Virus record (IMG/VR): IMGVR_UViG_3300037515_000373
Span: 1-31,390 of that record
Source: a virus
Taxonomy: Duplodnaviria > Caudoviricetes
Direction: 5' to 3' (one strand)
DNA: 31,390 bases
Part shown: piece by piece, positions 8,927 through 29,496 of the stretch
Position numbering within the stretch: the first letter of the stretch is position 1
Layout: every line of letters starts with the position of its first letter
Translations under genes and position numbers: made by a program
The notes under the pieces: generated by a model
What the model was told of the DNA's origin: nothing
Seen by the model: only the letters and a program-made list of their open reading frames with translations
Database searches by the model: none

Positions 8927-10435
8927 ATGGCTAGACAACGCGGCATGCTGCCTCGTGAAATCGCCGGGCTACCCGAGCACGGTGTGTGTCAGTGCGGAGT
9001 AGCGCTCATCCGATGGCCCAACCGCCCACCACAGTACGACACGCCAGAGGCCAAGACATGGCTTCACAACCCCGACACAGGGTTTCGCTACCGCGTATGT
9101 AAGGACACCCCCATGGCTGCCAAACCTGTTGCTGACTCCGTCTCTGATAGCGAAGAATTCTTTGCGCTCACTGCCGATGACATGCGTGAAGATCTGGAAG
9201 CGGTGATGACCGAGCTAGCCAACCTCACCGACATACTCGTCAGCGCGGAAAGACTGCTGGCGCAGGATATTTGGCATCAAGCGCATGACCTAGATTTAGG
9301 CGTGGAAGCAGAGAGGCTCTACCAAGCTGGTCAGCAAGAAGGGTTTTGGGATGACCCCCGCATAGAGCCGGAAATCGTGGAGCCCGACCCGCTGATCGTA
9401 CAAATGGGCTGGGACGCATATCATCTCACTGACTCGCAGGTTGAGTTTCTTGCCGGGCGCAGCCGCACCAAGTTTATGATTGAGCAACTACGCGAGCAGG
9501 TTACACCAATACTCACCAGCAACGACACTGAGTTGATACCTGGGGCTCAAGGTTTTCTGGACTCGCTGGATGAGATCAAACCCGTTGTGACGCAAGAGGA
9601 TTTCTTCGCCGAAGGGCCGCGCGACGACACGCCGTTGCTCACTGACCTGAAAGCCATGGTGCGCCAGCATGCCACCTCGCATCCCCGGCACGCGCAGATA
9701 CGCCTGGGGCCGTCGGAGGTAGGACACCCGTGCGCGCGCAAAGTCATCAGCGGCTTGATCGGTCAGGATGCCCGCGACAATGAGGCCAATCCGGCATTCG
9801 ACGTGCTGCCATCCTACATCGGGGTGGCCAGCCACAAGGCCATGGAAGACGCTGTAGCCCTAGACAATGCACGGCTGGAAGCAGAGGGCATGCCGCCCCG
9901 TTGGTTCTCAGAGCGCAAGGTGACAGTGTCCGAAGGGCTCAGTGGCACATGCGATTTGTATGATTTACATACCGGAACAATTGTGGATTTCAAGTTCCCC
10001 GGCGTCACACGCATGACGCAGTATCGCAAGGCTGTTGCTGCCGGGCAGGCTCCGAACATGGTGTACCGCATCCAAAGCCACTTGTACGGCAAGGGGTATC
10101 GCAATGAGGGCTACGACGTGAAAAACGTGGGCATCTGGTTTCTGCCGCGTTCCGGCACCCTGTCCACGTCGTTACTGTGGGTTGAGCCCTACAGTGAAGA
10201 TCTTGTGCAAGAGCAGCTTTCGCGCCTAGAGGATCTGATCATCCTGCTGCATGATCTGGAACTGGAGCGCCATCCCGAGCGGCTGGCGATGATCCCGATC
10301 ACCCCGCACGAGTGCTCCCTGTGCCCCCACTTCTCGGTCAATCCGCAACGCAGCGCGGGTAATCCGTTCGCCTGCCTGGGCGGGGCTGAATATCAGCCGA
10401 AGATCACGGATCACTCTGGGGCGGTAGTGATATGA
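8927..10435 (+). CDS. Cas4-like PD-(D/E)XK exonuclease with long N-terminal extension
   Basis: GPSEVGHPCARK; GTCDLYD...IVDFK; YRIQSHLYG; C-terminal CSLC...C (1+3 Cys Fe-S pattern). Confidence 0.85.
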   Translation: MARQRGMLPREIAGLPEHGVCQCGVALIRWPNRPPQYDTPEAKTWLHNPDTGFRYRVCKDTPMAAKPVADSVSDSEEFFALTADDMREDLEAVMTELANLTDILVSAERLLAQDIWHQAHDLDLGVEAERLYQAGQQEGFWDDPRIEPEIVEPDPLIVQMGWDAYHLTDSQVEFLAGRSRTKFMIEQLREQVTPILTSNDTELIPGAQGFLDSLDEIKPVVTQEDFFAEGPRDDTPLLTDLKAMVRQHATSHPRHAQIRLGPSEVGHPCARKVISGLIGQDARDNEANPAFDVLPSYIGVASHKAMEDAVALDNARLEAEGMPPRWFSERKVTVSEGLSGTCDLYDLHTGTIVDFKFPGVTRMTQYRKAVAAGQAPNMVYRIQSHLYGKGYRNEGYDVKNVGIWFLPRSGTLSTSLLWVEPYSEDLVQEQLSRLEDLIILLHDLELERHPERLAMIPITPHECSLCPHFSVNPQRSAGNPFACLGGAEYQPKITDHSGAVVI

Positions 10436-14992: not shown

Positions 14993-15441
14993 GAGTCGGG
15001 ATCACCGCCACCCGCTACCCGCCCACCGTGCGGCAGCGAAAGCTGTTGCACCGCACTCTACGTGACGGCTTACACGAAGACGACGACCTGATCACCGAGC
15101 TACACCACGGAGCATGCACAGGCGGCGATGCGCTCGCCCACGAGATCGCGTTGCTAATGGACCTGTTCATCTACGTTCACCCGCCCATCAACCCGCGCTG
15201 GCTGTACTACGAGGCTGTGTTGAACCCCGGCCCCAAAGTCATTGTGCTGCCCGCCAAGGGCTATCACGAGCGCAACGACGACATCGTTGCTGCCAGCGCC
15301 GCCATGATCGTCATGCCCAACAGCTACGAACCGCAGCCGCATTCGGGCACCTGGAGCACCTACGCGAAAGCTGTTGAGGCGCACAAACCTACGCTGATGA
15401 TCTTCCCCGATGGCACCTCGCGATATGACGGCAATGAGTGA
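14989..15441 (+). CDS. SLOG superfamily (DprA/YspA-like) protein
   Basis: VGITATR, LHHGACTGGDALA, ERNDDIV, SGTWST motifs. Confidence 0.85.
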   Translation: MRVGITATRYPPTVRQRKLLHRTLRDGLHEDDDLITELHHGACTGGDALAHEIALLMDLFIYVHPPINPRWLYYEAVLNPGPKVIVLPAKGYHERNDDIVAASAAMIVMPNSYEPQPHSGTWSTYAKAVEAHKPTLMIFPDGTSRYDGNE

Positions 15442-17872
15442 GGTCGCAGAGTATCTAGACATACTCGACTACCAGCCCGGCGAATTAGTCGGCCTGTTCT
15501 GGAAACGCGGCGACGACCAGGAAACCGCCGTATTGCCCTTTGCCGCAGTCGAATACGCCATCAGCCAGATAGATCGAAGCTATGACATCTATCTAGCGCC
15601 GAATCCCACGAAAGGGCCGCCGCGAACATCGAAGCAGGGTAAAGGCTTTGGTGGCAGAGGCAAAGAGGCTGACGTGACACGGGTGCTGGCCGTCTACGCT
15701 GATCTGGATATCAAGCCCGGTGCCTGTCCCGATTTCGAATCGGCCATAGACATCACCAAAGAGGTATCGGGCATCATCGGAATAGAGCCTGTCGCAACGA
15801 TATTCAGCGGTGGCGGCATTCAGCCCATCTGGAAGCTAGACGACTGCGACCCCGCCATCGGGAAAAGACTATTGGCACGTTTCGGGCGGCTGGTGAAAAC
15901 CGTTGCCGCTGCACGAGATATCACCGTGGACAGTGTTTTTGACACGGCGCGGGTGCTGCGGGTGCCGGGCAGCCTCAACCATAAATACAACCCCGCCCGC
16001 GAAGCTGCATTGATCGTCGGGCGCGGGGCACCCATTGACCCTGACACCCTTTCCGAGCGCCTAGACGAGGTCGGTATTGCCGACATAGACGACGATGACG
16101 AGCTAGGTGCCGATGTGGTTGCCCGGCCCTCAGATTCGCCGTGGGCCACCGAAACATGCGCCTACATGCTCAGCGTCATCGAAGAGTGGAAGCGCGAGCA
16201 GGTCACCGACCGGCACCCGTGGCTGCTGTGTCAGCTTGTGCGCCTGGAATGCGCACGCCGGTACGCCTGCCTGACTGAAACCGATTACCGGCGCGCACAC
16301 AACGTTCTGGAAATCCGCTTCCGCAACGAAGGCGCCCGCCCCGGCGACGAAAGGACCATCCCGCGCCTAGAGATCAGCGACCTACGGGCAGAAGCGGATT
16401 CACGAGCCTCGCGCAAAACCGATGCGCAACTGAGCATTGAGCTAGGCGGCGACACCGGCCACACCCACAGCCTGGATGCGCTGGTAGCCAATATGACATT
16501 CGATCAGACGGTGCTGGCGCAGGCGGTGCTATCGGGGGGTGAGGTCGGTGTCAGCGCTGCTGCTGTGTTGCCATCGGGCGGCGAACCACCCGAGCGTCCC
16601 GAGATCATCGCGGGCATTGTCGAGACGGAGCAGAACTTCTGGGACAGCCGCGATTCACTGAAAAGCATTTACGAGTACGCACTTTCGCGCACAGCTAGCC
16701 CATGGTCTGTGCTGGGGTGTTGTGCGGCAACAGCTTTGGCATGGGTGCGACCAACGGCCACACTGGAGGCACTGGTTGGTGCCGGGCCGGGCTCGCTCAA
16801 CTGGTTCTGCTGCCTGGCAGCGGGCAGCGGTGGCGGTAAATCGACGTCATGGGCCACGGCGCGGCGCATCATGCCCGACAACGCCCGCACCCGCACCATC
16901 GGCGTCGGCAGCGGTGAAGGACTGCTGGAGGCGTTCGCACGGCGCGGCAAGGACGCCAACGGGGCCGCACAGATGAGTGTGCGGGAATCGCTGCTCGTCA
17001 ACATCGATGAAGTGGATTCACTGGCAGCCCAGAAGAGCCGCAGTGGATCGACATTGATCCCGCTGCTCAAATCGGCGTTCACCGGAGGTGAGTTGTCGTT
17101 TAGCTATGTCAGCAAGAAATACCCGGTGCTGCGCGATCAGACCTATCGGCTGACGCTGATTGCCAACGTGCAGCCCGGCAAGGCGGGCTGGATCTTCGAA
17201 GATGTGAAAGGTGGCTTCCCCCAACGGTTTATGTGGTTTCCGGCGCGCGATCATCGCATCACCAGGGCGCGCTACCGCAAAGAGGATTTCACACTGGGGC
17301 TGGTGCTGCCAGATGCCAGCGAATATGAGTATCCCAGAACACTTTTCGTGCCTCCGCAGGCAGTAGATGCGGTGATGGATGCACGCATACGGGCCAACAG
17401 TGTCGAGTTCGAAGACGGCTTGGAATCACACATGTTGTTCACACAGCTTAAATTCGCCTACGCGCTGGCGGTGCTTGATGGGCGTGCTGAAATGACGAGT
17501 GAGGACTGGCGGCTGGCGGGCATCGCACAGAACGTGTCGAACCTGACACGCGATTGGGTGCTGACCGGCATACGGGCCGAGCGGGAACGGGAAGATACCG
17601 AGCGGGGCGAGCGTCTGGGAACGGCGCGAGCGGTCAGCGACGCTACCGCGCTGGCGTATTCCACGGATCGTGCGGAGCGCATCATGGGCCGGGTGGCGGT
17701 GCGTATCAGTGAGGCCGGGCAGCAGGGTGCGCCAGATCGCGCGCTGAAGAAAAGCTTTGAGAGCAAGGACCGGCACTATGTCACGGCGGCACTGACCAAG
17801 CTGGCAGCCGAGGGTGTCATCGTGTCGAAAACGACCGGCGAAAGAGGTGGTGTCGCATGGTTTCTCAGGTAG
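15434..17872 (+). CDS. DNA primase (RepB/AEP-like) fused to P-loop helicase-like domain
   Basis: VYADLDIK, FSGGGIQPIW, DTARVLRVPGSLNHK; Walker A GSGGGKST, Walker B LLVNIDE; alternative starts 15410 or 15425. Confidence 0.88.
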   Translation: MSEVAEYLDILDYQPGELVGLFWKRGDDQETAVLPFAAVEYAISQIDRSYDIYLAPNPTKGPPRTSKQGKGFGGRGKEADVTRVLAVYADLDIKPGACPDFESAIDITKEVSGIIGIEPVATIFSGGGIQPIWKLDDCDPAIGKRLLARFGRLVKTVAAARDITVDSVFDTARVLRVPGSLNHKYNPAREAALIVGRGAPIDPDTLSERLDEVGIADIDDDDELGADVVARPSDSPWATETCAYMLSVIEEWKREQVTDRHPWLLCQLVRLECARRYACLTETDYRRAHNVLEIRFRNEGARPGDERTIPRLEISDLRAEADSRASRKTDAQLSIELGGDTGHTHSLDALVANMTFDQTVLAQAVLSGGEVGVSAAAVLPSGGEPPERPEIIAGIVETEQNFWDSRDSLKSIYEYALSRTASPWSVLGCCAATALAWVRPTATLEALVGAGPGSLNWFCCLAAGSGGGKSTSWATARRIMPDNARTRTIGVGSGEGLLEAFARRGKDANGAAQMSVRESLLVNIDEVDSLAAQKSRSGSTLIPLLKSAFTGGELSFSYVSKKYPVLRDQTYRLTLIANVQPGKAGWIFEDVKGGFPQRFMWFPARDHRITRARYRKEDFTLGLVLPDASEYEYPRTLFVPPQAVDAVMDARIRANSVEFEDGLESHMLFTQLKFAYALAVLDGRAEMTSEDWRLAGIAQNVSNLTRDWVLTGIRAEREREDTERGERLGTARAVSDATALAYSTDRAERIMGRVAVRISEAGQQGAPDRALKKSFESKDRHYVTAALTKLAAEGVIVSKTTGERGGVAWFLR

Positions 17873-20211: not shown

Positions 20212-21072
20212 ATGGCGACATGCCAGGCCGGGGCGGCGTGCTGTGATTCGCGGATCGTCAGCGGTGAACGCCAGCCGGTGGACGGCATCGACGGGGTGTT
20301 GTGTGCGCAATGCCTTAGCGCACTGCGTCAATCGGTGCGCAACCTGGTCAGCGACTACAGCGCTCTTGGCGCTCTTGTAGGTGAGCGTCCGGTGACCGGC
20401 GATATCTCGGTGTCCATGACGCCCGATCCGGTGGTGCCCATCAACGTGCATGTGATGGCGCTGCAAGACGAATTGGCTGCCAATGCCGAAGCCGCATTGC
20501 TGGCGGTGAGGGACAAGCTGAGTGCTCCAGTGCCGGTGCGGCAAAGAGGCCGGGGCTATCCGGTGCGCAACGGGCCGGTGATCCTGATGGCGCACAAGGT
20601 GTTTCGTCCCGATGTGGGGTTGCTGGTGAATGCTGGGGCAGATATTGCGGTGAGGATCATGCGCGCCCATCGCAAGGTGAATTCCGTTGTGGGAGAGCGC
20701 AAACAACGTCGGCGGCTGGCGATGCCATGCCCGATGGACGAGTGTGGTATGCCGACACTGGGGATCGACAACGGCGAAACCGATGTGACCTGCCGTAGCT
20801 GCGGCGGGCGCTGGACCGAAGCGGAGTATGAATGGTTCGCCGGAATGATCACCGGCTCAACAGATCAGAAAGAGGTACACATGCTGCGCTGGTTGCTCGC
20901 TGAAAAGACTTGGCAGGTAGCACAATTAGAGCAATTCTGCGACAACACCGACGACATGCTAGCCAAGGTCAAAGCGATAGCCGGTAATGATCTCAGCCAG
21001 TTCGATACGGCTACCGTACAGGCGTACCTGGTGGAAACGCTGGGTGATTGGGCACCAGGGCAATGGATGTAG
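20212..21072 (+). CDS. Zn-finger phage protein, putative transcriptional regulator
   Basis: LCAQC near N-terminus; PCPMDECG...VTCRSCGGRW; last gene of the + strand block. Confidence 0.7.
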   Translation: MATCQAGAACCDSRIVSGERQPVDGIDGVLCAQCLSALRQSVRNLVSDYSALGALVGERPVTGDISVSMTPDPVVPINVHVMALQDELAANAEAALLAVRDKLSAPVPVRQRGRGYPVRNGPVILMAHKVFRPDVGLLVNAGADIAVRIMRAHRKVNSVVGERKQRRRLAMPCPMDECGMPTLGIDNGETDVTCRSCGGRWTEAEYEWFAGMITGSTDQKEVHMLRWLLAEKTWQVAQLEQFCDNTDDMLAKVKAIAGNDLSQFDTATVQAYLVETLGDWAPGQWM

Positions 21073-21096
21073 TACGGGCGTACCAGAATTTTGGGC

Positions 21097-21192
21097 AAAA
21101 AAATAGCGCCGGTCCAAACCCGTTGAATGTCTTGGGGTTTGGAGCGCGGCGCTAAGCCCCGCAGCAAGGCGGCTAAACCTCACTGCGGGGCT
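21097..21192 (-). terminator. tandem hairpins between convergent operons
   Basis: AGCCCCGCAG/CTGCGGGGCT (21155-64/21183-92, extended by G-U pairs on - strand); TCCAAACCC/GGGTTTGGA (21113-21/21135-43) followed by a U7 tract on the - strand. Confidence 0.7.
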
Positions 21193-21197
21193 CTTGT

Positions 21198-21308
21198 TCA
21201 TTCGCCGGTCATTACCTCCAGCGGATTGGTGCCGGGCACATAGCTGCCGGGCGGGTCAGCCAGTCCCAGTAGGAACCTGATTAAGGCATCCATATCGGTG
21301 CTGTCCAT
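21198..21308 (-). CDS. small hypothetical protein (36 aa)
   Basis: MDSTDMDALIRFLLGLADPPGSYVPGTNPLEVMTGE; RBS GAGGTG, starts just after upstream stop. Confidence 0.5.
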   Translation of the reverse strand: MDSTDMDALIRFLLGLADPPGSYVPGTNPLEVMTGE

Positions 21309-21309
21309 G

Positions 21310-21711
21310 TCATTTCACCTCCGATGCGTAATCGATGCTGAGCACGTTGGCCCCCAGCTTCTCGGCGGCACGCACTGCGATGTGCCGGTGCCAGGCCGGG
21401 GGCATCTCATCGGCCCACCCGGTGATCTCGGCGGGCACCAAGAGGTGCTGACCCCCGGTGACCACCTGGTAGGCGTCAACCGCCTCGTGCGCCCGCTGAC
21501 GCATCAGTGTCAACAGGCTGGCCGCGCGCTGCGGCACGGTGCCACCGGGCGATTCCCAGCGCAGCACCGCACGCGGGCCGACGCCTAGTTGCACAGCTAC
21601 CCACTGAGTGCTCAACCCCAGATATTCACGCAGGCAACGGAATTCGGCAGGCGACATGGTCTGTGGCAGTAGGGCCGTTAGTTCGTCGTCGCTGTATTCG
21701 GACAATCTCAT
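21310..21711 (-). CDS. Aca2/YdiL (DUF1870)-like HTH regulator
   Basis: MSPAEFRCLREYLGLSTQWVAVQLGVGPRAVLRWE...VP and C-terminal PPAWHRHIAVR. Confidence 0.75.
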   Translation of the reverse strand: MRLSEYSDDELTALLPQTMSPAEFRCLREYLGLSTQWVAVQLGVGPRAVLRWESPGGTVPQRAASLLTLMRQRAHEAVDAYQVVTGGQHLLVPAEITGWADEMPPAWHRHIAVRAAEKLGANVLSIDYASEVK

Positions 21712-21851
21712 GGGCTTTCCTTTCTGTACTCGATACCGAAACCGATACCGTGCTCATGTATTTCGATGGCGGGATTGCCACCTGTGAGGATTGCCAGCAG
21801 CACCGTGTTGAACACGGCAGCCGTGGGCAGCAGCCAGAAGTCAGGAATCAT
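21708..21851 (-). CDS. small hydrophobic protein (47 aa)
   Basis: ATG 21851 after purine-rich RBS; ATGA overlap with HTH gene. Confidence 0.55.
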   Translation of the reverse strand: MIPDFWLLPTAAVFNTVLLAILTGGNPAIEIHEHGIGFGIEYRKESP

Positions 21852-21889
21852 GGCGTGCTCTCTTTCTACTTGGTGATGGTGTGATGGTT

Positions 21890-21942
21890 GAATCCATCTA
21901 GCAGCACAGCGACCTGAAAGCCGCTGTGCCACCCGTTGATTC
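21890..21942 (-). repeat. 53-nt structured repeat, copy A
   Basis: GAAUCAACGGGUGGCACAGCGGCUUUCAGGUCGCUGUGCUGCUAGAUGGAUUC. Confidence 0.9.
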
Positions 21943-21977
21943 ATCCTCCTAGCTTCGCAGGCAAAGCCTGCTCGCAA

Positions 21978-22316
21978 CTAGTGTGTTGACCAGGTCTGCC
22001 CACCATCGTGGCTGTGAACCCCGGCGGCGATCACCTTGCGGTCCACGCTGCGCCCGGCCAATTGCTCAGCGCGGGCTAGCGCCATTTTGGTCGCTGCCGA
22101 GCCCTTTGCCGACACCAGCCGGTATATGCAGGCGTCAGTCATGCGGGCGCGGTCAGCATCGGGGATGCCGTCGAACGTGATGGCACCCTGCGGGCCGACC
22201 TTGGCTTTGATCTTGCGCGAGGCCAGCATTTTGTCGATTTTCGCGACAGCCTGGCGAACCTCTGCAATGCGTTGCGCGGGTGTCTGATTGGGCAACCGCA
22301 TCAAGTCACATGCCAT
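21978..22316 (-). CDS. hypothetical protein (112 aa), AAA-ATPase-associated
   Basis: RBS GGAGG; N-terminal MACD, C-terminal GVHSHDGGQTWSTH. Confidence 0.85.
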   Translation of the reverse strand: MACDLMRLPNQTPAQRIAEVRQAVAKIDKMLASRKIKAKVGPQGAITFDGIPDADRARMTDACIYRLVSAKGSAATKMALARAEQLAGRSVDRKVIAAGVHSHDGGQTWSTH

Positions 22317-22441
22317 GATTTATACCTCCGTGATTCGTGTGATGTCGGGCCACACATGCGCACTGTGTTTTGCCACGGCAGCACATCGGCTACCGTGCCC
22401 ACGAGTGTTTCTGTGCGCCAATCGAATTCGACCTATGGCGA

Positions 22442-23191
22442 TCATGCGTCGTCGTCCAGATCGATGCTGCGCACATCGACCACAACCTGGATGTCGTCGG
22501 GGTGTTCCCCTTCGGTGTCCAGGTCCAGGAACGACGTACGGGCATTGTCGATTTTCTCGATGGTGACCTTGTCGATTTCCAGCGCCACATCCTCACCGGC
22601 TGCCTTGATTTTGGTGGCAGCGGCACGGGCAACCGAAATCGCTTCGGTCAGACGCTCTTTGGCGTCATCGGAGAGCATTTCGCCCAGCGATTTGGCCTGA
22701 TTGCAGGCGTCCCGCACAGCTTTGACATCCAGCTTCGCGAGCCCAGTTTGCATGGTGGACATCAGGTTTCGCACCTCTTCTGAGATGGCCCGCACTGCCT
22801 CCACGTCATCCTGAGCCACCCGGCCACAGATCACACTGACCTGTACCCGCGTAATCTCTGATCCGGCGTTGAATTCGTCGGCTAGCTTGCGTGCTTCAGC
22901 CACGGTGGCCATCAGCACGTCGGCTTTGTCTTCGGGGCACAGCAGTCCGTGATCAGACTTCGCGCAGACGCCCCGAATGAGGTTGGACACCTTGTTACGC
23001 ACCTTGACCGCGTCTTCGTATTCGGCGGGGTCGCTGATGATGCGCTCGGTTTCCCAGCGGGCGCGCTCTTCGCCGGTAGCGGTGAGGTGGGCGCGCTCCA
23101 GATCCTCTTTGCGGTACTGGATGTTTCCGTTGATGCCCGTCTTCAGGCTGACCAACAGACCAGGCCGCAAGGTGCGGATGGTTTCAGACAT
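22442..23191 (-). CDS. helical hypothetical protein (249 aa), AAA-ATPase-associated
   Basis: RBS AAGGGAG; alpha/beta N-half, helical C-half, acidic tail. Confidence 0.85.
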   Translation of the reverse strand: MSETIRTLRPGLLVSLKTGINGNIQYRKEDLERAHLTATGEERARWETERIISDPAEYEDAVKVRNKVSNLIRGVCAKSDHGLLCPEDKADVLMATVAEARKLADEFNAGSEITRVQVSVICGRVAQDDVEAVRAISEEVRNLMSTMQTGLAKLDVKAVRDACNQAKSLGEMLSDDAKERLTEAISVARAAATKIKAAGEDVALEIDKVTIEKIDNARTSFLDLDTEGEHPDDIQVVVDVRSIDLDDDA

Positions 23192-23227
23192 TTCGATCTC
23201 CCTTGGTTGTGTGATGGTGATGGTTGT

Positions 23228-23280
23228 GAATCCATCTAGCAGCGCAGCGACCCGAAAGCCGCTGCGCCACCCGTTGATTC
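23228..23280 (-). repeat. 53-nt structured repeat, copy B
   Basis: GAAUCAACGGGUGGCGCAGCGGCUUUCGGGUCGCUGCGCUGCUAGAUGGAUUC; 50/53 identical to copy A. Confidence 0.9.
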
Positions 23281-23289
23281 ACCTCCTAG

Positions 23290-24858
23290 TTAAAAATCTA
23301 GCTGCCGTTCACTGCCTTTACCCTTGCCCTTGGGCGCGGTGGTGGCGGTGCTGGTGGCTTCGCGGGCGAAATCGGGGCGCTGCTTGTCAGAGCCCTTGGG
23401 TTTCACCAGCTTTGCCGCTGCCACAATATCCTCTGTGGTGATTTCGCGGGCACCCTCATTGAAAGCCACGAACATGCTTTCCGGTATGAGAGCGGCGATT
23501 TCAGCTCCAGAGAATTGGTGTGTGGCTGAGGCGACTGCTTCCAGATCGATGCCGATGGTGTCGGCATTACGTCCGTGAGAGCGTAGCGCTGCGGCGACAA
23601 CGCCTTGGCGCTCAACATCGTTGGGCAGCCCCACCCAAAACACTTCATCGAAACGCCCCTTACGCAGTAGCTCGGGCGGCAGCTTGTCCACTGCGTTTGC
23701 CGTCGCTACCACAAAGGCCTCTGAGGTGCGGTCGTTCATCCACGAGAGCAGCGCTCCGAGAGCATCGGCAGACACCCCGCCATCGCCAGCTTCCCCGCTG
23801 GCACCGGCTAGTGCCTTTTCGATCTCGTCAATGACAATGACGCATCGGCCAATGGCCTCAATGGTGTTGAACGCCTGGCGAATGCTGGCCTCTGACTGCC
23901 CGACGTACTTACCTTTCAGGGCGTTCAGATCCAGCTTGATCAGCGGCACTTGCCATTCGGCGGCAAGGGCTTTGGCAGAAAGTGTCTTACCGCAGCCGGG
24001 CACGCCCAACAGCAGCGCACCCTTGGGTGCCGGTAGCCCATACTCGCGGGCAGCCGGGGAATAGGCACTAGAGCGTGCCGTCACCCAAATTTTCCATTGA
24101 TCAAGCCCGCCAACGGCTTCCATGCCACCGGGCAGCGGGGTCAGCCATTCCAGGCCGCTCCCGCGAATCGCCTGCTGCTTCTCGGCAGCAATGGTGGCCG
24201 GATCAATCCGTTTGGATTGCACCAGCGATTTGGCGAATGTTGCCTGTGCCTCTTCGCCGGAAAGCCCCACGGCGGCGTCGATTGCCGCGTCACGCTGGCC
24301 GTTGACTGCACCCTTACGCACGTCTTCGGGCAGGCTGGCTACTGTCGCATCCAGCAATGCCGCGATTTCTTCGCGGTCAGGTAACGGCCAATCGATCACC
24401 GTGGCATGGTTTTTCAACTCTGAGGGCACCTCAGCGCTAGGGCTGATCACGATGATTGCCTGCGCGCTGTGGCGTGGCTGGTTGGGTAACCAGCGCACCA
24501 GGTTGCGCAACCGTCGCAGCGTCAGCAGACCCGCAGGCGGGCCGAGCCACGAGGGCAGGTCACGCATGATGAACACGTTTCGATTCGGGGTTTCCGGCGA
24601 ACCGGCCTGCTCTCGAATCAAATCCAGTGCCCCATCAGGGTCATCAGAGTTGGGAAACGCGCGATCAGGGGTGCCGTCTATGCTGGTGATCCCAGCGGCG
24701 ACATCCCATGCCCGCGTCATGTATTTGGCCTCTGCTGCTGCTTCGAAAAGGTACTTTTCGACTCGCGCCTCTTCGGTGGTCACTACCCACAGCAACGGGT
24801 TACGTGCCTTGAGTAGCGCCGTGATGTCAGCGGCTTTGGCTTGTGACTTGGTGGTCAT
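23290..24858 (-). CDS. Ycf46-like AAA+ ATPase (522 aa)
   Basis: N-terminal LLKARNPLLWVVTTEEARVE; Walker A GVPGCGKT; pore loop KYVGQSE; Walker B IVIDEIEK; SRH TAN...LPPELLRKGRFDE. Confidence 0.92.
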   Translation of the reverse strand: MTTKSQAKAADITALLKARNPLLWVVTTEEARVEKYLFEAAAEAKYMTRAWDVAAGITSIDGTPDRAFPNSDDPDGALDLIREQAGSPETPNRNVFIMRDLPSWLGPPAGLLTLRRLRNLVRWLPNQPRHSAQAIIVISPSAEVPSELKNHATVIDWPLPDREEIAALLDATVASLPEDVRKGAVNGQRDAAIDAAVGLSGEEAQATFAKSLVQSKRIDPATIAAEKQQAIRGSGLEWLTPLPGGMEAVGGLDQWKIWVTARSSAYSPAAREYGLPAPKGALLLGVPGCGKTLSAKALAAEWQVPLIKLDLNALKGKYVGQSEASIRQAFNTIEAIGRCVIVIDEIEKALAGASGEAGDGGVSADALGALLSWMNDRTSEAFVVATANAVDKLPPELLRKGRFDEVFWVGLPNDVERQGVVAAALRSHGRNADTIGIDLEAVASATHQFSGAEIAALIPESMFVAFNEGAREITTEDIVAAAKLVKPKGSDKQRPDFAREATSTATTAPKGKGKGSERQLDF

Positions 24859-24898
24859 GGTGAATCTCTTTCTCTTGGTGGGTGATTCGATGGATGGT

Positions 24899-24951
24899 GA
24901 ATCCATCCCACGACACACAGAGCCGAAACCCTATGTGCCGGTGGTTGATTC
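24899..24951 (-). repeat. 53-nt structured repeat, copy C (diverged)
   Basis: GAAUCAACCACCGGCACAUAGGGUUUCGGCUCUGUGUGUCGUGGGAUGGAUUC; same ends, length and loop register. Confidence 0.85.
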
Positions 24952-24954
24952 TTT

Positions 24955-25136
24955 GCAGGCAGAGCCTGCTCGCCGTGTGTAGTCGGGCTATGCCCGAATA
25001 CTTCGGGGGCCGGGACCGAATCGAACGGTCGTCATGCTCAACCAGAGCAGCCCATTGCCTAGATCATCGTTATGCATTAGATGCTAGGCCAGCGTTTAAC
25101 CCGCGCTGATGCGGTGTGAAAAGCGTTGTTACGCTT
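24955..25136 (-). ncRNA. structured leader or ncRNA with tRNA-like T-arm
   Basis: GACCG-UUCGAUU-CGGUC (25014-25030) plus several neighbouring hairpins. Confidence 0.5.
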
Positions 25137-25177
25137 GATAAATAAGTATGTGAGCCATCCAAGACGCTTGTAACAAC
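25125..25177 (-). promoter_or_regulatory. candidate leftward promoter flanked by an inverted repeat
   Basis: AT-rich; TTACAA-N17-CATACT on - strand; GTTGTTAC (25125-32) / GTAACAAC (25170-77). Confidence 0.4.
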
Positions 25178-25369
25178 TCAAGCTTTGCCCTCATCGCTTA
25201 CCGTTCAAATGCGTTGTGCCGGTGGTGGTTTCGATGTGTCGGTGGCTATCTCGTACCCGCTGACTTTGCGGTGCGGAGCGCCTGCCTACAGGGAGAGAAA
25301 CCGTCGGTCACAAATTCATCGGCCCAGGTGGGCTGACGGGTTTGTCGCGATGGGGTTTGTTGAGATCCT

Positions 25370-25620
25370 TCTGCACGCCAGTCTCACCGCGCGTTTCACG
25401 CGGTTGGCCGGGCGTCGGGCGCGTAGTGGCACCCGCTGTAGCGCGGCTCTGGCCTGTCTCTTGGCTCAGTGCGTCCCGCGTGGCCGTATCAGGCACCGCG
25501 CGGGCTGTGGGTCGTATTCTCGGAGGGAGGGGGATCGGGTGGTCACTTCTGGGGAGTTTCGCTCTTCTGGCCTTTCGGCCCCCGCGTGTCCGATCCTGCT
25601 CTCGCCTCCTTTCCCTTCAC
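25370..25620 (-). ncRNA. candidate multi-stem structured RNA
   Basis: Nested helices GGAUCGG/CCGAUCC, GGCC-GAAA-GGCC, CCCGCG/CGCGGG, ACCGCG/CGCGGU; no convincing ORF. Confidence 0.4.
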
Positions 25621-25634
25621 CCATAGCGTACCCG

Positions 25635-25650
25635 TAGCGGCTAGCCGCTA
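25635..25650. promoter_or_regulatory. perfect 16-bp palindrome, candidate operator
   Basis: TAGCGGCTAGCCGCTA, next to a - strand TACGCT (-10-like, 25625-25630). Confidence 0.5.
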
Positions 25651-25663
25651 AACGTCTTTTGGC

Positions 25664-25679
25664 TGTGATTTCAGTCACA
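25664..25679. promoter_or_regulatory. CRP/GlxR consensus box
   Basis: TGTGA-TTTCAG-TCACA, exact TGTGA-N6-TCACA. Confidence 0.55.
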
Positions 25680-25830
25680 ATATCTTGCGTTCGTCCTGCG
25701 TCATTCTGCATGCGCGCGTGACCAGGCGAAATAACGAACACGGCAAGGGTGGGGTGGTTGGACCTGACACGGGGTTTCGTGGCTCAGCGTGCGCCACAGC
25801 CCCGGCAATGGGCCGCTACGCTCGTGGGCC

Positions 25831-26208
25831 ATGAGCGCAGAGGTTCACGCCAAGCAGGTGGCCCAGTCCTACCGCCGACTAGCTCAGGGGATTGCCAGCG
25901 GTGAGGTGCCCGACCCACAGGCCGCGCTGGCGGCGCTCGATGAGCATTGGCAGGGCCACGGGGCTAAGTGGGTGGTGCCGTGTCAGGTGCCTCTGGATCT
26001 GGATGCGTGGCTGGCAGCCGGGGAGGTGGCCGACGTGCTGGGCATCGCTGCGCGGCGGTTGCGGGACTGGGCGCGCTATGGGCATGTCCGGTGCTACGTC
26101 GCTGATGGGGTCCACCGGTACAGCGTGGGCGACGTGGTCAATTATCAGCGCAGGCGTGCAAAGCGTGTGGTCAGGCCCGTTACCGAAACTGCCGGTAACG
26201 TGATGTAG
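25831..26208 (+). CDS. MerR/excisionase-like HTH DNA-binding protein
   Basis: WLAAGEVADVLGIAARRLRDWARYGHV...RYSVGDV. Confidence 0.8.
   Translation: MSAEVHAKQVAQSYRRLAQGIASGEVPDPQAALAALDEHWQGHGAKWVVPCQVPLDLDAWLAAGEVADVLGIAARRLRDWARYGHVRCYVADGVHRYSVGDVVNYQRRRAKRVVRPVTETAGNVM
26176..26199. repeat. 24-bp palindromic repeat, copy 1
   Basis: CCCGTTACCGAAACTGCCGGTAAC. Confidence 0.8.
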
Positions 26209-26258
26209 GGCTGTCTTCCCTGTTGGCTACACTGGCTTTCACCAGCAAGGGAGAAACC

Positions 26259-26570
26259 ATGAATCCTGATGTGGCACAAAGCTTTATCGCATGGCAAAGC
26301 CTGGCAGTATGTAGAGACTATGATCCCGACATGTTCTTTCCCGAACTAGAGGGTAGAGGGCCGAGAGCTCAGCGCCGGTTGATTACCAAAGTTGTTGACG
26401 CACAACGGGTCTGCTCGGTATGTCCGGTGATGATGCAATGTAGGCGCGAGGCCCGGCGTACTCAAGCGGTGTGCGGGGTGTGGGGCGGGGAGTTCCTTGG
26501 GGTCGTGTCGGCCCATCGGCCTACCACACGCAACGGCGAGAAGATCATGGCCGCAGCCGGATTGGCCTAA
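26259..26570 (+). CDS. whiB: WhiB family transcription factor
   Basis: WQSLAVC...DPDMFFP...CSVCPVMMQC...GVWGGE; RBS AAGGGAG. Confidence 0.93.
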   Translation: MNPDVAQSFIAWQSLAVCRDYDPDMFFPELEGRGPRAQRRLITKVVDAQRVCSVCPVMMQCRREARRTQAVCGVWGGEFLGVVSAHRPTTRNGEKIMAAAGLA

Positions 26571-26669
26571 CGCTGCTGAAGCGAGCGCGGATACGCTACT
26601 ATGGCGGCAAGTTTGCTGTTCCCAAAAACAGGTAGTCGCAACATCATTGGTGTATCTGCCCAGGTCAAC

Positions 26670-26693
26670 CCCGTTACGGAAACTGCCGGTAAC
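26670..26693. repeat. 24-bp palindromic repeat, copy 2
   Basis: CCCGTTACGGAAACTGCCGGTAAC, 23/24 identical to copy 1. Confidence 0.8.
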
Positions 26694-26735
26694 CGGAGTA
26701 TGTGCGGGAAAACTAAAAGGAAAAGGGGCAAGGCT

Positions 26736-27002
26736 ATGGCTCGCTTGGACATTCGTGTGGATGGTCGCACCAGGGTTTCTCGCACTGTGGATGATGCCGT
26801 GGTAGCTGCCGTGCTCAAGGCCAGCGAGCCGGTCAAGGTCAAGGCCAAGGTCAGGAACTTTCAGGGTACGACGGTGAAGCAGGCTAAAGCCAAGGCAGAG
26901 GGTGACACCCGGCCTGGCAGTACTACTGGCGACGTGCCCGAGAAGAGCCTGGGCGGTACAACTGGCGACGTGCCCGAGAAGAGCACGACAGGCGATGCTT
27001 GA
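26736..27002 (+). CDS. small basic protein with TTGDVPEKS repeats
   Basis: RBS AAGGGG; duplicated ACTGGCGACGTGCCCGAGAAGAGC. Confidence 0.65.
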   Translation: MARLDIRVDGRTRVSRTVDDAVVAAVLKASEPVKVKAKVRNFQGTTVKQAKAKAEGDTRPGSTTGDVPEKSLGGTTGDVPEKSTTGDA

Positions 27003-27276
27003 TCATGCTGAGGCTGCCCGGCTGTGGCGTACCCAAGAGGGCAAACGCTTGTCGGCACAGGTGGTCAGCGAAGAACCGTTGTGCCGCATACGATTAGCCG
27101 GTTGCACTGACATCAGCACGCAGGCCGATCACATCATTGCCATCAGTGTGCAACCCGCACTATGGAATGTGCGCGACAACCTGCAAGGCGCATGCGCATG
27201 GTGCAACAATCATCGGCAAGCGCGCGATCTCGCCGAAATGCATGAGCCGCAAGCACTTTCGTTCTTCAACGTGTAA
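26995..27276 (+). CDS. HNH endonuclease (terminase-associated)
   Basis: EPLCRIRLAGC...ADHIIA...NLQGACAWCN; lies just before terS. Confidence 0.88.
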   Translation: MLDHAEAARLWRTQEGKRLSAQVVSEEPLCRIRLAGCTDISTQADHIIAISVQPALWNVRDNLQGACAWCNNHRQARDLAEMHEPQALSFFNV

Positions 27277-27513
27277 GCGCGAAAAGCGTTACAGCACAAC
27301 GGCATTCATGCACGCGATGATGTTTGCTGACTTTCGCATCGTCGCAGGTCAGCCACGGATTGGGCCGTTTTTTTGGTAGCTGCATATGCGCGAGAGGCCG
27401 TCGCGGGACTTATTCATACCGCACTTATAACCTTGAACTTATTTAGGAATGAAAACTGAAGCAGCACAACAAGTTTCAGAGCCAACGCCGAAAAGCGTTG
27501 CAAACCACAAGGA
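27277..27513. other. probable cos/packaging region
   Basis: Non-coding gap between HNH and terS, the usual cos position in HK97-like phages; exact overhang not identifiable. Confidence 0.5.
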
Positions 27514-27879
27514 GTGAAGATCATGGCAGCACGGAAGACGAACCTGGCAGCGGTGCCCGAAGAGGTGCCACCGAAAACCCGAGCCCGCGCGACTCGCGCG
27601 AAGGTGTCGGCAGGTAAGCCCCCGGCCAAGCGGGCGCAGTCACGGCGGCGTGGCAAAGCCATTGATATTGACGACGAGCGCGAGACGCTGATCATGCTGC
27701 GCACCACGCTCAAGAAAAAGATCGATGACGCGCCCACGCACGCAATCGCCGCGATTGTCAAGCAGTTTCGCGACGTGGACCGCGAGATCAGAGCCATTGA
27801 CGCCAAGGCCGCACAGCAGGCCGAAGAGGACGGCGACGACGACGGCGACGATGAGGGCTGGAGCGACGACGATCTATGA
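27514..27879 (+). CDS. terS: terminase small subunit
   Basis: Position; RETLIMLRTTLKKKID...IAAIVKQFRDVDREIRAID with acidic tail; RBS AAGGAG favours ATG 27523. Confidence 0.8.
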   Translation: MKIMAARKTNLAAVPEEVPPKTRARATRAKVSAGKPPAKRAQSRRRGKAIDIDDERETLIMLRTTLKKKIDDAPTHAIAAIVKQFRDVDREIRAIDAKAAQQAEEDGDDDGDDEGWSDDDL

Positions 27880-27931: not shown

Positions 27932-28075
27932 GTGACCGCAACCCTGATGGGGCAGCTTGGATATTGCCCCGGCTGTCATGCCTGGCAACTCTATGTCGGT
28001 GCATATGACGAGCACGGCAAAACTGTTCGCTGCGCGGGCTGTTTGCGCGTGCCCGGCGAGTGCCGCTGCCGATGA
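27932..28075 (+). CDS. small Zn-finger protein (47 aa)
   Basis: CPGC...CAGC...CRC; GTGA and ATGA overlaps. Confidence 0.6.
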   Translation: MTATLMGQLGYCPGCHAWQLYVGAYDEHGKTVRCAGCLRVPGECRCR

Positions 28076-29496
28076 CCGCAGCGCTAGCCCCTGACCGGCG
28101 CAAGCTGAGTCAGGTCACCCGCGAACTCGTCCGGCCCGAGGGCATTGTATCCACCGGGTTCGGGCCGGTCGAGAAGCGTTGTGTGCAAATGGGTGTGACG
28201 CTGGATGAGTGGCAGCGCGGCATTGGCAAGTTGGTGCTGGCCAAGACATCGGATGGCAACTACGCGGCCACAGTCGGCGGTGTGGGGCTATCGCTGCCGC
28301 GTCAGGTGGGTAAGACCTACACCATTGGCTCGATCACCTTCGCGCTCTGTACATTGGTGCCGGGGCTGACGGTGGTGTGGACGAGCCACCACATGAAGAC
28401 GACCGGTGAAACGTTCCTGTTCATGCAGGGTTTCGCCAAGCGCATGCGGGTGGCTCCGTTCATCGACAACATCTATCTCGGTTCCGGCGACGAAGAGATC
28501 AGATTTACCAACGGCTCGCGCATCCTGTTCGGCGCTCGCGAACGCGGGTTCGGTCGCGGTATCGCCGGGGTTGACATTCTGATTTGCGATGAGGGGCAGA
28601 TACTTTCGGAGAAAGCCCTGGACAACATGCTCGCGACGTTGAACACGTCGAATCAGTGCGGTGGTCTGGCGATCTTCATGGGCACCCCGCCCAAGCCTGA
28701 GGACACCTCCGATGCGTTTGCCCGCATGCGCCGCGAAGCCATCGATGGTGATGTCACCGATACCGCGTGGATCGAATGCGGCGCTGACCCCAATGCCGAT
28801 CCCGACGACCGGCGACAGTGGGCGAAAGCCAATGCCAGTTATCCGTATCGCACGCCTCTGACCAGCATGTTAAGGCTGAGGCGCAAGCTGACGACAGAGT
28901 CATGGCTACGTGAGGGTTTGGGGATCTGGCAGGATTACGACGCACTGCGCAAGTTGGATCTGGCGCGCTGGGCGAAGTTGCGCAATGTCCGTGCGCCAGA
29001 ACCGAATAGGGCCGCACTCGTGGTGGACGTGAGCCCCGATAATCGGTGGGCCAGCATCGGCATTGCTGGAAAGTCTTTTGGTGACAGGGTTTTGGTGATG
29101 TGCAAGTCAGGACGTGGCATCGGGTGGGTGACTGACGCGGTGATGAAACTTCGCACCAGCAAAGGGATTACGGAGATTGCCCTGGTCATGGGTGGTCAAG
29201 CGCGAGGGCTGCAAGCCGAATTCCACACTGCCGGTTTGGAATTCCACAAGATGACACAGGTGGATGTCAGTGCATCATGTGTCGCTTGGCAATTGGGAAT
29301 GAAATCTAAAACCATTGTTCATTTAGGACAGGGCGAATTGGATTTAGCTGTAGCAAATGCGCGACTGCGTCCATTCGGTGAGTCTGAGATCTGGGATCGC
29401 ACGCGGGAATCGCTGGACATCTCGCCCGTGGTAGCATGCGCGGCGGCTTATCATCGGTGGGGCTTGAGTCAAACCCCTACTCCGACAATCGTTTAG
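28072..29496 (+). CDS. terL: terminase large subunit
   Basis: LPRQVGKT Walker A, ILICDEGQ Walker B, MGTPP, WAKAN, LVVDVSPD, DISPVVA. Confidence 0.95.
   Translation: MTAALAPDRRKLSQVTRELVRPEGIVSTGFGPVEKRCVQMGVTLDEWQRGIGKLVLAKTSDGNYAATVGGVGLSLPRQVGKTYTIGSITFALCTLVPGLTVVWTSHHMKTTGETFLFMQGFAKRMRVAPFIDNIYLGSGDEEIRFTNGSRILFGARERGFGRGIAGVDILICDEGQILSEKALDNMLATLNTSNQCGGLAIFMGTPPKPEDTSDAFARMRREAIDGDVTDTAWIECGADPNADPDDRRQWAKANASYPYRTPLTSMLRLRRKLTTESWLREGLGIWQDYDALRKLDLARWAKLRNVRAPEPNRAALVVDVSPDNRWASIGIAGKSFGDRVLVMCKSGRGIGWVTDAVMKLRTSKGITEIALVMGGQARGLQAEFHTAGLEFHKMTQVDVSASCVAWQLGMKSKTIVHLGQGELDLAVANARLRPFGESEIWDRTRESLDISPVVACAAAYHRWGLSQTPTPTIV

Follow-up and report, generated by a model that had tools for sequence, protein, structure and literature searches.

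The window analysed here, a virus record of 31,390 bases in its own right (IMG/VR IMGVR_UViG_3300037515_000373; Caudoviricetes), carries on its minus strand an operon in which three copies of a predicted 53-nucleotide (nt) RNA hairpin stand just ahead of genes (Table 1). In the order of transcription, copy C precedes a gene for a 522-amino-acid (aa) AAA ATPase and copy B a 249-aa gene, a 112-aa gene follows, and copy A precedes a 47-aa gene that is followed by a gene for a helix-turn-helix (HTH) protein. An original prediction, made from the sequence of the window, had proposed that the hairpins are a repeated cis-acting structured RNA of no recognised named family. We argue, largely by analogy, that they are likely to be sites of RNase III processing.

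Table 1. Hairpins, leaders, dyads, genes and the likely terminator of the minus-strand operon (window coordinates).
Feature	Position	Strand	Remarks
Hairpin copy A	21890..21942	-	53 nt; ahead of 47-aa gene; predicted cut just 5' of G at 21898
Hairpin copy B	23228..23280	-	53 nt; ahead of 249-aa gene; predicted cut just 5' of G at 23236
Hairpin copy C	24899..24951	-	53 nt; ahead of AAA ATPase gene; predicted cut just 5' of G at 24907
A/C-rich leader and ribosome site after A	21852..21889	-	38 nt
A/C-rich leader and ribosome site after B	23192..23227	-	36 nt
A/C-rich leader and purine-rich ribosome site after C	24859..24898	-	40 nt
15-bp dyad upstream of copy A	21957..21971		possible DNA operator, separate from hairpin
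Second 15-bp dyad, upstream of copy C	24955..24969		possible DNA operator
AAA ATPase gene, 522 aa	23290..24858	-	Pfam PF00004, E 3.8e-31; phrog_8638; homolog of Cluster O mycobacteriophage AAA-ATPase (Corndog gp96)
249-aa gene, function not assigned	22442..23191	-	phrog_11021; 939 homologs; widely linked with AAA gene
112-aa gene, function not assigned	21978..22316	-	phrog_11784; third module member
47-aa gene behind copy A	21708..21851	-	phrog_8547, E 1.2e-4
133-aa HTH gene	21310..21711	-	Aca2/YdiL-like by ESM Atlas only
Long stem then U7, likely terminator closing the operon	21097..21154	-	fold z -5.1

All three copies were found where they had been placed, at 53 nt each, with invariant ends and a U(UUCR)G loop, and the pair changes that had been named in the inner stem (16-37; 23-30, 20-33 and 19-34) are present in the sequence. 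The gap between hairpin and ATG, put at 36-40 nt, measured 38 (A), 36 (B) and 40 (C). On the minus strand each copy folds as one single hairpin, with energies of -29.5, -31.0 and -27.2 kcal/mol for A, B and C (z -6.3, -6.2 and -4.5), and for each of them 0 of 200 shuffles folded as well; the plus-strand folds are weaker (-15.9, -17.4 and -11.7 kcal/mol). Copies A and B are 95% identical, so that real covariation within the window comes from copy C only. Across the whole window the sequence GATGGATTC occurs on the minus strand only at the three copies, as does GAATCAAC, which has three unrelated matches on the plus strand. Rfam gave no relevant match for window positions 20800-27600 at E up to 10, in keeping with the lack of a named family; at the same limit neither the Actino-pnp model (RF01688) nor any of the ribozyme models matched the element.

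To find further members of the family, other sequences were scanned with patterns for both end sequences and the matches were then checked by folding. Most of the 281 distinct end-motif matches are chance, while 14 have a strong inner stem. An A/C-rich leader, a Shine-Dalgarno (SD) sequence and an ATG follow 12 of these 14, compared with 1 of the 267 weak-stem matches; stem and leader context go together. One locus with the stem but no leader context (L331) was excluded. The family comprises 15 copies in 7 records, including the window (3 copies), G002 (1, in the same AAA operon as the window's), G001 (3), G004/L149 (2), L283 (2), L333 (3) and L292 (1). Almost all copies are followed by an A/C-rich leader and a ribosome site. 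The end region of G001 is 100% identical to that of the cultured Gordonia phage Orchid and was counted once; in Orchid the copies lie at the end of the genome, ahead of genes 113-115, which are unrelated. Three more copies are found in the cultured Gordonia phage Gibbles. The end sequences of the hairpin are found again in phages of Mycobacterium-like bacteria that are only distantly related.

The family ends GAAUCAAC...GAUGGAUUCA are near-fixed, an invariance that the search patterns partly build in, and the apical stem between them is variable, with compensatory changes. In the alignment of the 15 copies, changes on both sides were seen in 14 of 15 apical pairs, 90.3% of cells pair, and the covariation score was reached by 0 of 500 shuffles, figures that are inflated by the relatedness of the copies and by the stem filter. 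Sense-strand stems contain 34 G-U pairs against 3 A-C. Homologs and covariation therefore support the proposal of a repeated cis-acting structured RNA. Searches elsewhere added little: further viral scans gave no new record with a full copy, none of at least 120 stretches from a GTDB pattern scan (54 of 64 parts) folded as a family member, model R1 gave two weak matches only in 151 sampled actinomycete genomes, and short blastn searches of the element against annotated phages gave chance-level matches. A description of the motif was not found in the literature searched, which covers few subscription papers (the original Cluster M paper lies outside it).

In relatives, the positions held by the hairpins in the window can be occupied by other RNAs. 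A custom pattern placed a hammerhead-like fold directly before the AAA gene of G002 (type II) and L395, the slot of copy C, and before the 249-aa homolog of L370 and L390, the slot of copy B. The pattern matched 16 times, in 6 of 89 loci, had no match in 80 shuffled loci, and missed an Rfam-level match in L401. Rfam-level hammerheads were found in the same gene runs of G002, L390 and L401, in an Rfam scan of 12 of 80 loci. A Pistol ribozyme lies in the leftward block of Orchid (L126 16018-16091, minus strand; 36.9 bits, cut-off 34.5). The Orchid Pistol stands just upstream of tRNA-Leu and tmRNA and is absent from the record's feature list. Type II hammerheads before phage genes were also seen at L127 8855-8923 (minus strand) and upstream of the L127 AAA gene, at L390 2232-2305 and at L401 3723-3795, and L370 269-5965 contains seven hammerhead-like copies, each followed by SD and ATG and all below the Rfam cut-off.

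In other slots stand sister hairpins, 50-60 nt long and with UGAR(U/C)/(R)YUCA as the closing sequence, which we found in G002, G004, L401, L411, L283 and the Cluster M phage Rey; the base UGARU/AYUCA is common to these and the element. We counted 119 such hairpins in 93 sources: 41 with the leader context and a mixed set of 78 that includes reverse copies. In 37 of the 41 leader-type hairpins a G stands at 10 nt from the end of the helix, with varying bases after it (25 of 29 when the present family is left out); of the 78 others, 45 have this G. A 22-nt apical block is common to the family copy in G002 and a sister type in L401; apex and base therefore behave as modules. In the hairpin before Orchid gene 116 the base has undergone two compensatory changes, from C-G to G-C and from A-U to U-A, with the bulge, the A.A and the C-G kept, in one lineage only.

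A sister family, CUGAGU...ACUCAG, without an Rfam match at gathering score, precedes almost every small gene in L149 2640-5370, L401 4032-7990, L411 4301-8140 and L127 9980-10910. Irregular hairpins of 50-60 nt, several with GNRA loops, stand before most right-end genes of Rey (L342 11000-20000), and upstream of the 249-aa homolog L368, L369 and L377 have in common a short hairpin, GCGGTTTCGCAGACCGC, that precedes the ribosome site.

We propose that the hairpins are processing sites for host RNase III, at which the long phage message would be cut between genes; reasoning from analogy, we give this a probability of roughly 0.55. The operon would be transcribed as one, probably early, RNA. Each hairpin would form a helix of about 24 columns, made up of a 6-bp base, a 1-nt bulge, an A-U pair, an A.A mismatch, a C-G pair and an apex of about 15 bp. 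The fixed base would be recognised by RNase III, which would cleave the 3' strand immediately ahead of GAUGGAUUCA and possibly the 5' strand as well. If one strand only were cut, the upstream fragment would keep a hairpin that protects its 3' end, and the downstream fragment would carry an unstructured A/C leader with its ribosome site; every gene would in this way receive the same leader, whatever lies upstream.

Several features suit such a role. RNase III substrates are described as helices of about two turns in which irregularities are allowed (PMC1540722; PMC6212723), and one-strand cuts at loops as leaving protective 3' hairpins (PMC1540722). With its 6-bp base, loop region and apex of about 15 bp, the element has the helix length of a T7-type site (about two turns, or about 22 bp, irregularities allowed), and it is non-coding and lies ahead of a ribosome site in a phage operon, as such a site does. 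In actinobacteria, the RNase III of Streptomyces coelicolor is reported to cut both sides of a 4/4 internal loop in the pnp leader and to prefer G-C duplexes (PMC10126417), and staggered cuts have been mapped in the pnp leader of P. acnes (PMC3848588). Taken together, the irregular helix of two turns, the fixed base, the free apex and the G at fixed distance fit a ruler-type nuclease acting on double strands, host RNase III being the simplest candidate, and the exchange of slots with hammerhead-like RNAs points, by analogy, to cutting. Of the roles offered in the original prediction, an RNase III-type site thus appears to fit best, by slot exchange, helix length and a T7-like loop; nothing positive was found for antitermination, and the third, binding of an Aca2-like protein, looks unlikely for reasons given below. 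We regard the hairpins as an undescribed family within a known kind, which most likely works in the manner of the RNase III signals of T7. By eye, an actinobacterial 16S processing stem has only AAC on the 5' strand in common with the element, and it was not counted.

The fit to RNase III was scored in all registers with an in vivo matrix of the E. coli enzyme (PMC6212723, Table S4; high threshold -25.5), the host of the window being actinobacterial. With G48 bulged, the register that cuts before GAU has the best mean of 17 registers (-29.8) and is the best in 5 of 15 copies; taking the best register of each copy gives a mean of -27.8, with 3 of 15 over the threshold. Controls scored in the same way gave a mean of -26.8 for Actino-pnp (2 of 14 pass) and values of -24.6 to -31.1 for T7 (1 of 5 passes). 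The element, Actino-pnp and T7 score alike, and the matrix test therefore neither supports nor excludes RNase III.

A number of observations weigh against RNase III processing. The GAU register passes -25.5 in 2 of 15 copies, and the window copies lie between -28.5 and -34.0; permuted apical pairs score at least as well in 98.7% of 2000 trials, and another alignment of the loop does not favour this register. On the apical side the element has G-C or G-U where E. coli RNase III is described as preferring A-U (PMC1540722). Because the B. subtilis enzyme is reported to have the same preferences as that of E. coli (PMC11780869), this poor apical fit is a real, if mild, objection. As to the slot exchange, the four slot-matched hammerheads rest on the custom pattern, three of them falling below the Rfam gathering score and the fourth, in L395, lying outside the Rfam scan. 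Four of the 15 copies, including all three of Orchid, fold on the antisense strand at least as well as on the sense strand. Part of the invariance of the ends comes from the search patterns, and the copies are related to one another. No full copy was found in 80 loci related to the AAA module, most of which hold neither hairpin nor hammerhead; because of this, and because the Orchid copies stand ahead of unrelated genes, the element is not tied to the AAA module. Cluster O phages have a DNA palindrome, not the hairpin, at the homologous positions. Finally, early timing is suggested by position and by the Cluster O paper, while a promoter scan of the window found none.

The main rival to RNase III processing is a hairpin that stays uncut and acts through its structure or by binding protein, as an exonuclease barrier, a translation insulator, or a site to which RNase III or some other RNA-binding protein of the host binds without cutting. 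We consider this possible but clearly the less probable account. It would be consistent with the weak fit to E. coli cleavage preferences and with the many different hairpins that fill these slots in relatives, and both non-cleaving binding by RNase III and G-C catalytic antideterminants have been described (PMC1540722). A plain barrier, however, needs neither a fixed base sequence nor a fixed G 10 nt from the helix end, and the exchange of slots with hammerhead-like RNAs speaks for cutting. Stable hairpins between genes, in an operon closed by a terminator-like structure, could also be transcription signals (a weak terminator, a pause or an antitermination element), which we think unlikely. 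There is no U-tract, with 0-3 T in the 8 bases after the 15 copies and 1 in each window copy, and the element is absent from the terminator-scan list; a copy before each of several consecutive genes is also unlike a single antitermination site. Identity as an intrinsic terminator was rejected, since no U-tract follows the stem.

Since the element stands where hammerhead-like and Pistol ribozymes stand, and since its loop is fixed and its stem varies freely, it might itself be a new minimal self-cleaving RNA, a 53-nt single hairpin with the AAC/GAUG internal loop as active site. The hairpin would then cut itself and be interchangeable with hammerhead and Pistol ribozymes in actinophages, giving each gene a fresh leader. 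We judge this quite improbable: the element is a single hairpin in which about seven loop bases are conserved and the apical loop varies, no Rfam ribozyme model matched it, and the loop letters are changed in the sister types and in the Orchid variant. Even less credible, in our view, is a DNA recombination joint, similar to attC, for the swapping of small genes. The copies do separate small variable genes, and after the same 112-aa gene the window and G002 both hold the element but differ in the genes behind it; G-T pairs, moreover, form in single-stranded DNA too. On the other hand, it is the sense strand that is favoured, a UUCG-type loop is found in most copies, and homologous recombination between repeats explains the gene swaps. 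The attC core follows the pattern RYYYAAC...GTTRRRY. This core is absent from both strands of the three window copies, and identity with attC was accordingly rejected.

The operon also encodes a candidate binding partner, and the original prediction had named its Aca2-like HTH protein as one. ESM Atlas places this protein with Aca2_YdiL clusters (score 0.94, TM 0.77), although neither Pfam nor PDB gave an Aca2 match; a PF08965 search missed even the HTH protein of the window and is hence uninformative. Aca2 binds RNA, and the hairpin could thus be an RNA operator for the protein of the same operon, but we hold little belief in this. If it were the ligand, other carriers of the hairpin should encode a cognate gene, and of 5 records compared the HTH family phrog_955 was detected in the window only and in none of G001 (complete, with 3 copies), G002, G004 and Rey; tblastn found no homolog in 90 loci. 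A better candidate site for the HTH protein is a 15-bp dyad that had escaped the original prediction, an exact 6-3-6 repeat (GCAGGC-NNN-GCCTGC) just upstream of copies A and C, which is possibly its operator. The window has two copies of the dyad, which is absent from all of 459 loci and resembles the 7-3-7 repeat of Cluster O in plan.

The AAA region matches 34 Cluster O mycobacteriophage records at about 68%. Relatives were found by an alignment-based search, whereas single-protein searches of viral contigs gave none. The genes for the AAA ATPase, the 249-aa protein and the 112-aa protein form a widespread three-gene phage module of unassigned function (82, 82 and 77 of 90 loci; window 21978-24858 and L343-L422). 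The 249-aa protein has a weak DUF3150 match, below the bar for naming. The likely terminator in Table 1 is absent from the list of a simple terminator scanner; a 17-bp hairpin at window 21141-21193 (minus strand), between convergent genes, overlaps it. Genes for WhiB, HNH and portal proteins stand on the operon's other side. Three long open reading frames, 8927-10435 (502 aa), 15410-17872 (820 aa) and 28060-29496 (478 aa), have no Pfam or NCBIfam match, the last of them sitting at the terminase position. A 31-nt repeat flanks the whiB gene (26169-26199 and 26663-26693), and a 36-nt tandem duplication lies at 26916-26984.

If host RNase III does process these hairpins, T7-style punctuation of messages would extend to actinophages, and actinobacterial RNase III, of which the literature searched only sketches the rules, would gain a compact candidate substrate. 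Hammerhead-like RNAs and hairpins would then be interchangeable cutters that insulate the leader of each gene, which bears on the role of phage ribozymes. The stem-loops noted in Cluster M phages may have the same explanation. Copies for study occur in the cultured Gordonia phages Orchid and Gibbles.

The element can be compared with several known systems. In Cluster O, a 17-bp palindromic repeat and SigA-like promoters have been described for the homologous region (PMC4351075), and in Corndog the palindrome stands ahead of the homologous AAA and downstream genes; unlike the hairpin it is a short strand-symmetric DNA dyad, and it resembles instead the 15-bp dyad of the window. The type II hammerhead (RF02276) and Pistol (RF02679) ribozymes share with the element the same slots and the same A/C leader behind them. 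The element has no catalytic core, however, and RNase III would leave a 5'-phosphate where ribozymes leave a 5'-OH. Processing of polycistronic RNA has been suggested as a role for phage-linked ribozymes (PMC6765202). Actino-pnp RNA (RF01688), which is probably the hairpin cut by S. coelicolor RNase III in the pnp leader, is similar in its length of about 60 nt, its near-fixed base with mismatches, its variable apex and its place upstream of a ribosome site (14 host hairpins), but it has another sequence, is chromosomal, occurs in one copy and autoregulates pnp.

Stem-loops upstream of the conserved repeats CR3 and CR4 were described in Cluster M mycobacteriophages, in a passage that assigns them no function (PMC7953290). 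The hairpins of the Cluster M phage Rey are like the element in being irregular, 50-60 nt long, closed by UGAR(U/C)/(R)YUCA and placed before A/C leaders and ribosome sites of right-end genes; their loop letters differ, and model R1 had no match in the Rey right end (L342). The early precursor RNA of T7 is reported to contain five RNase III processing signals (PMC3867540). The element differs from these in its longer apical stem (about 15 bp against 9-12), an extra bulged G, a base that is near-fixed across distant phages, an actinobacterial host and a cleavage that is predicted only; the T7 records themselves have no RNase III annotation. Like the element, the T7 signals (R0.3, R0.5, R1, R1.1 and R1.3) are intergenic hairpins, irregular and two turns long, that precede a ribosome site and have similarly modest matrix scores, and those before genes 0.3, 0.5 and 1.1 have AC opposite GAU at the internal loop, just before which, we presume, T7 RNA is cut.

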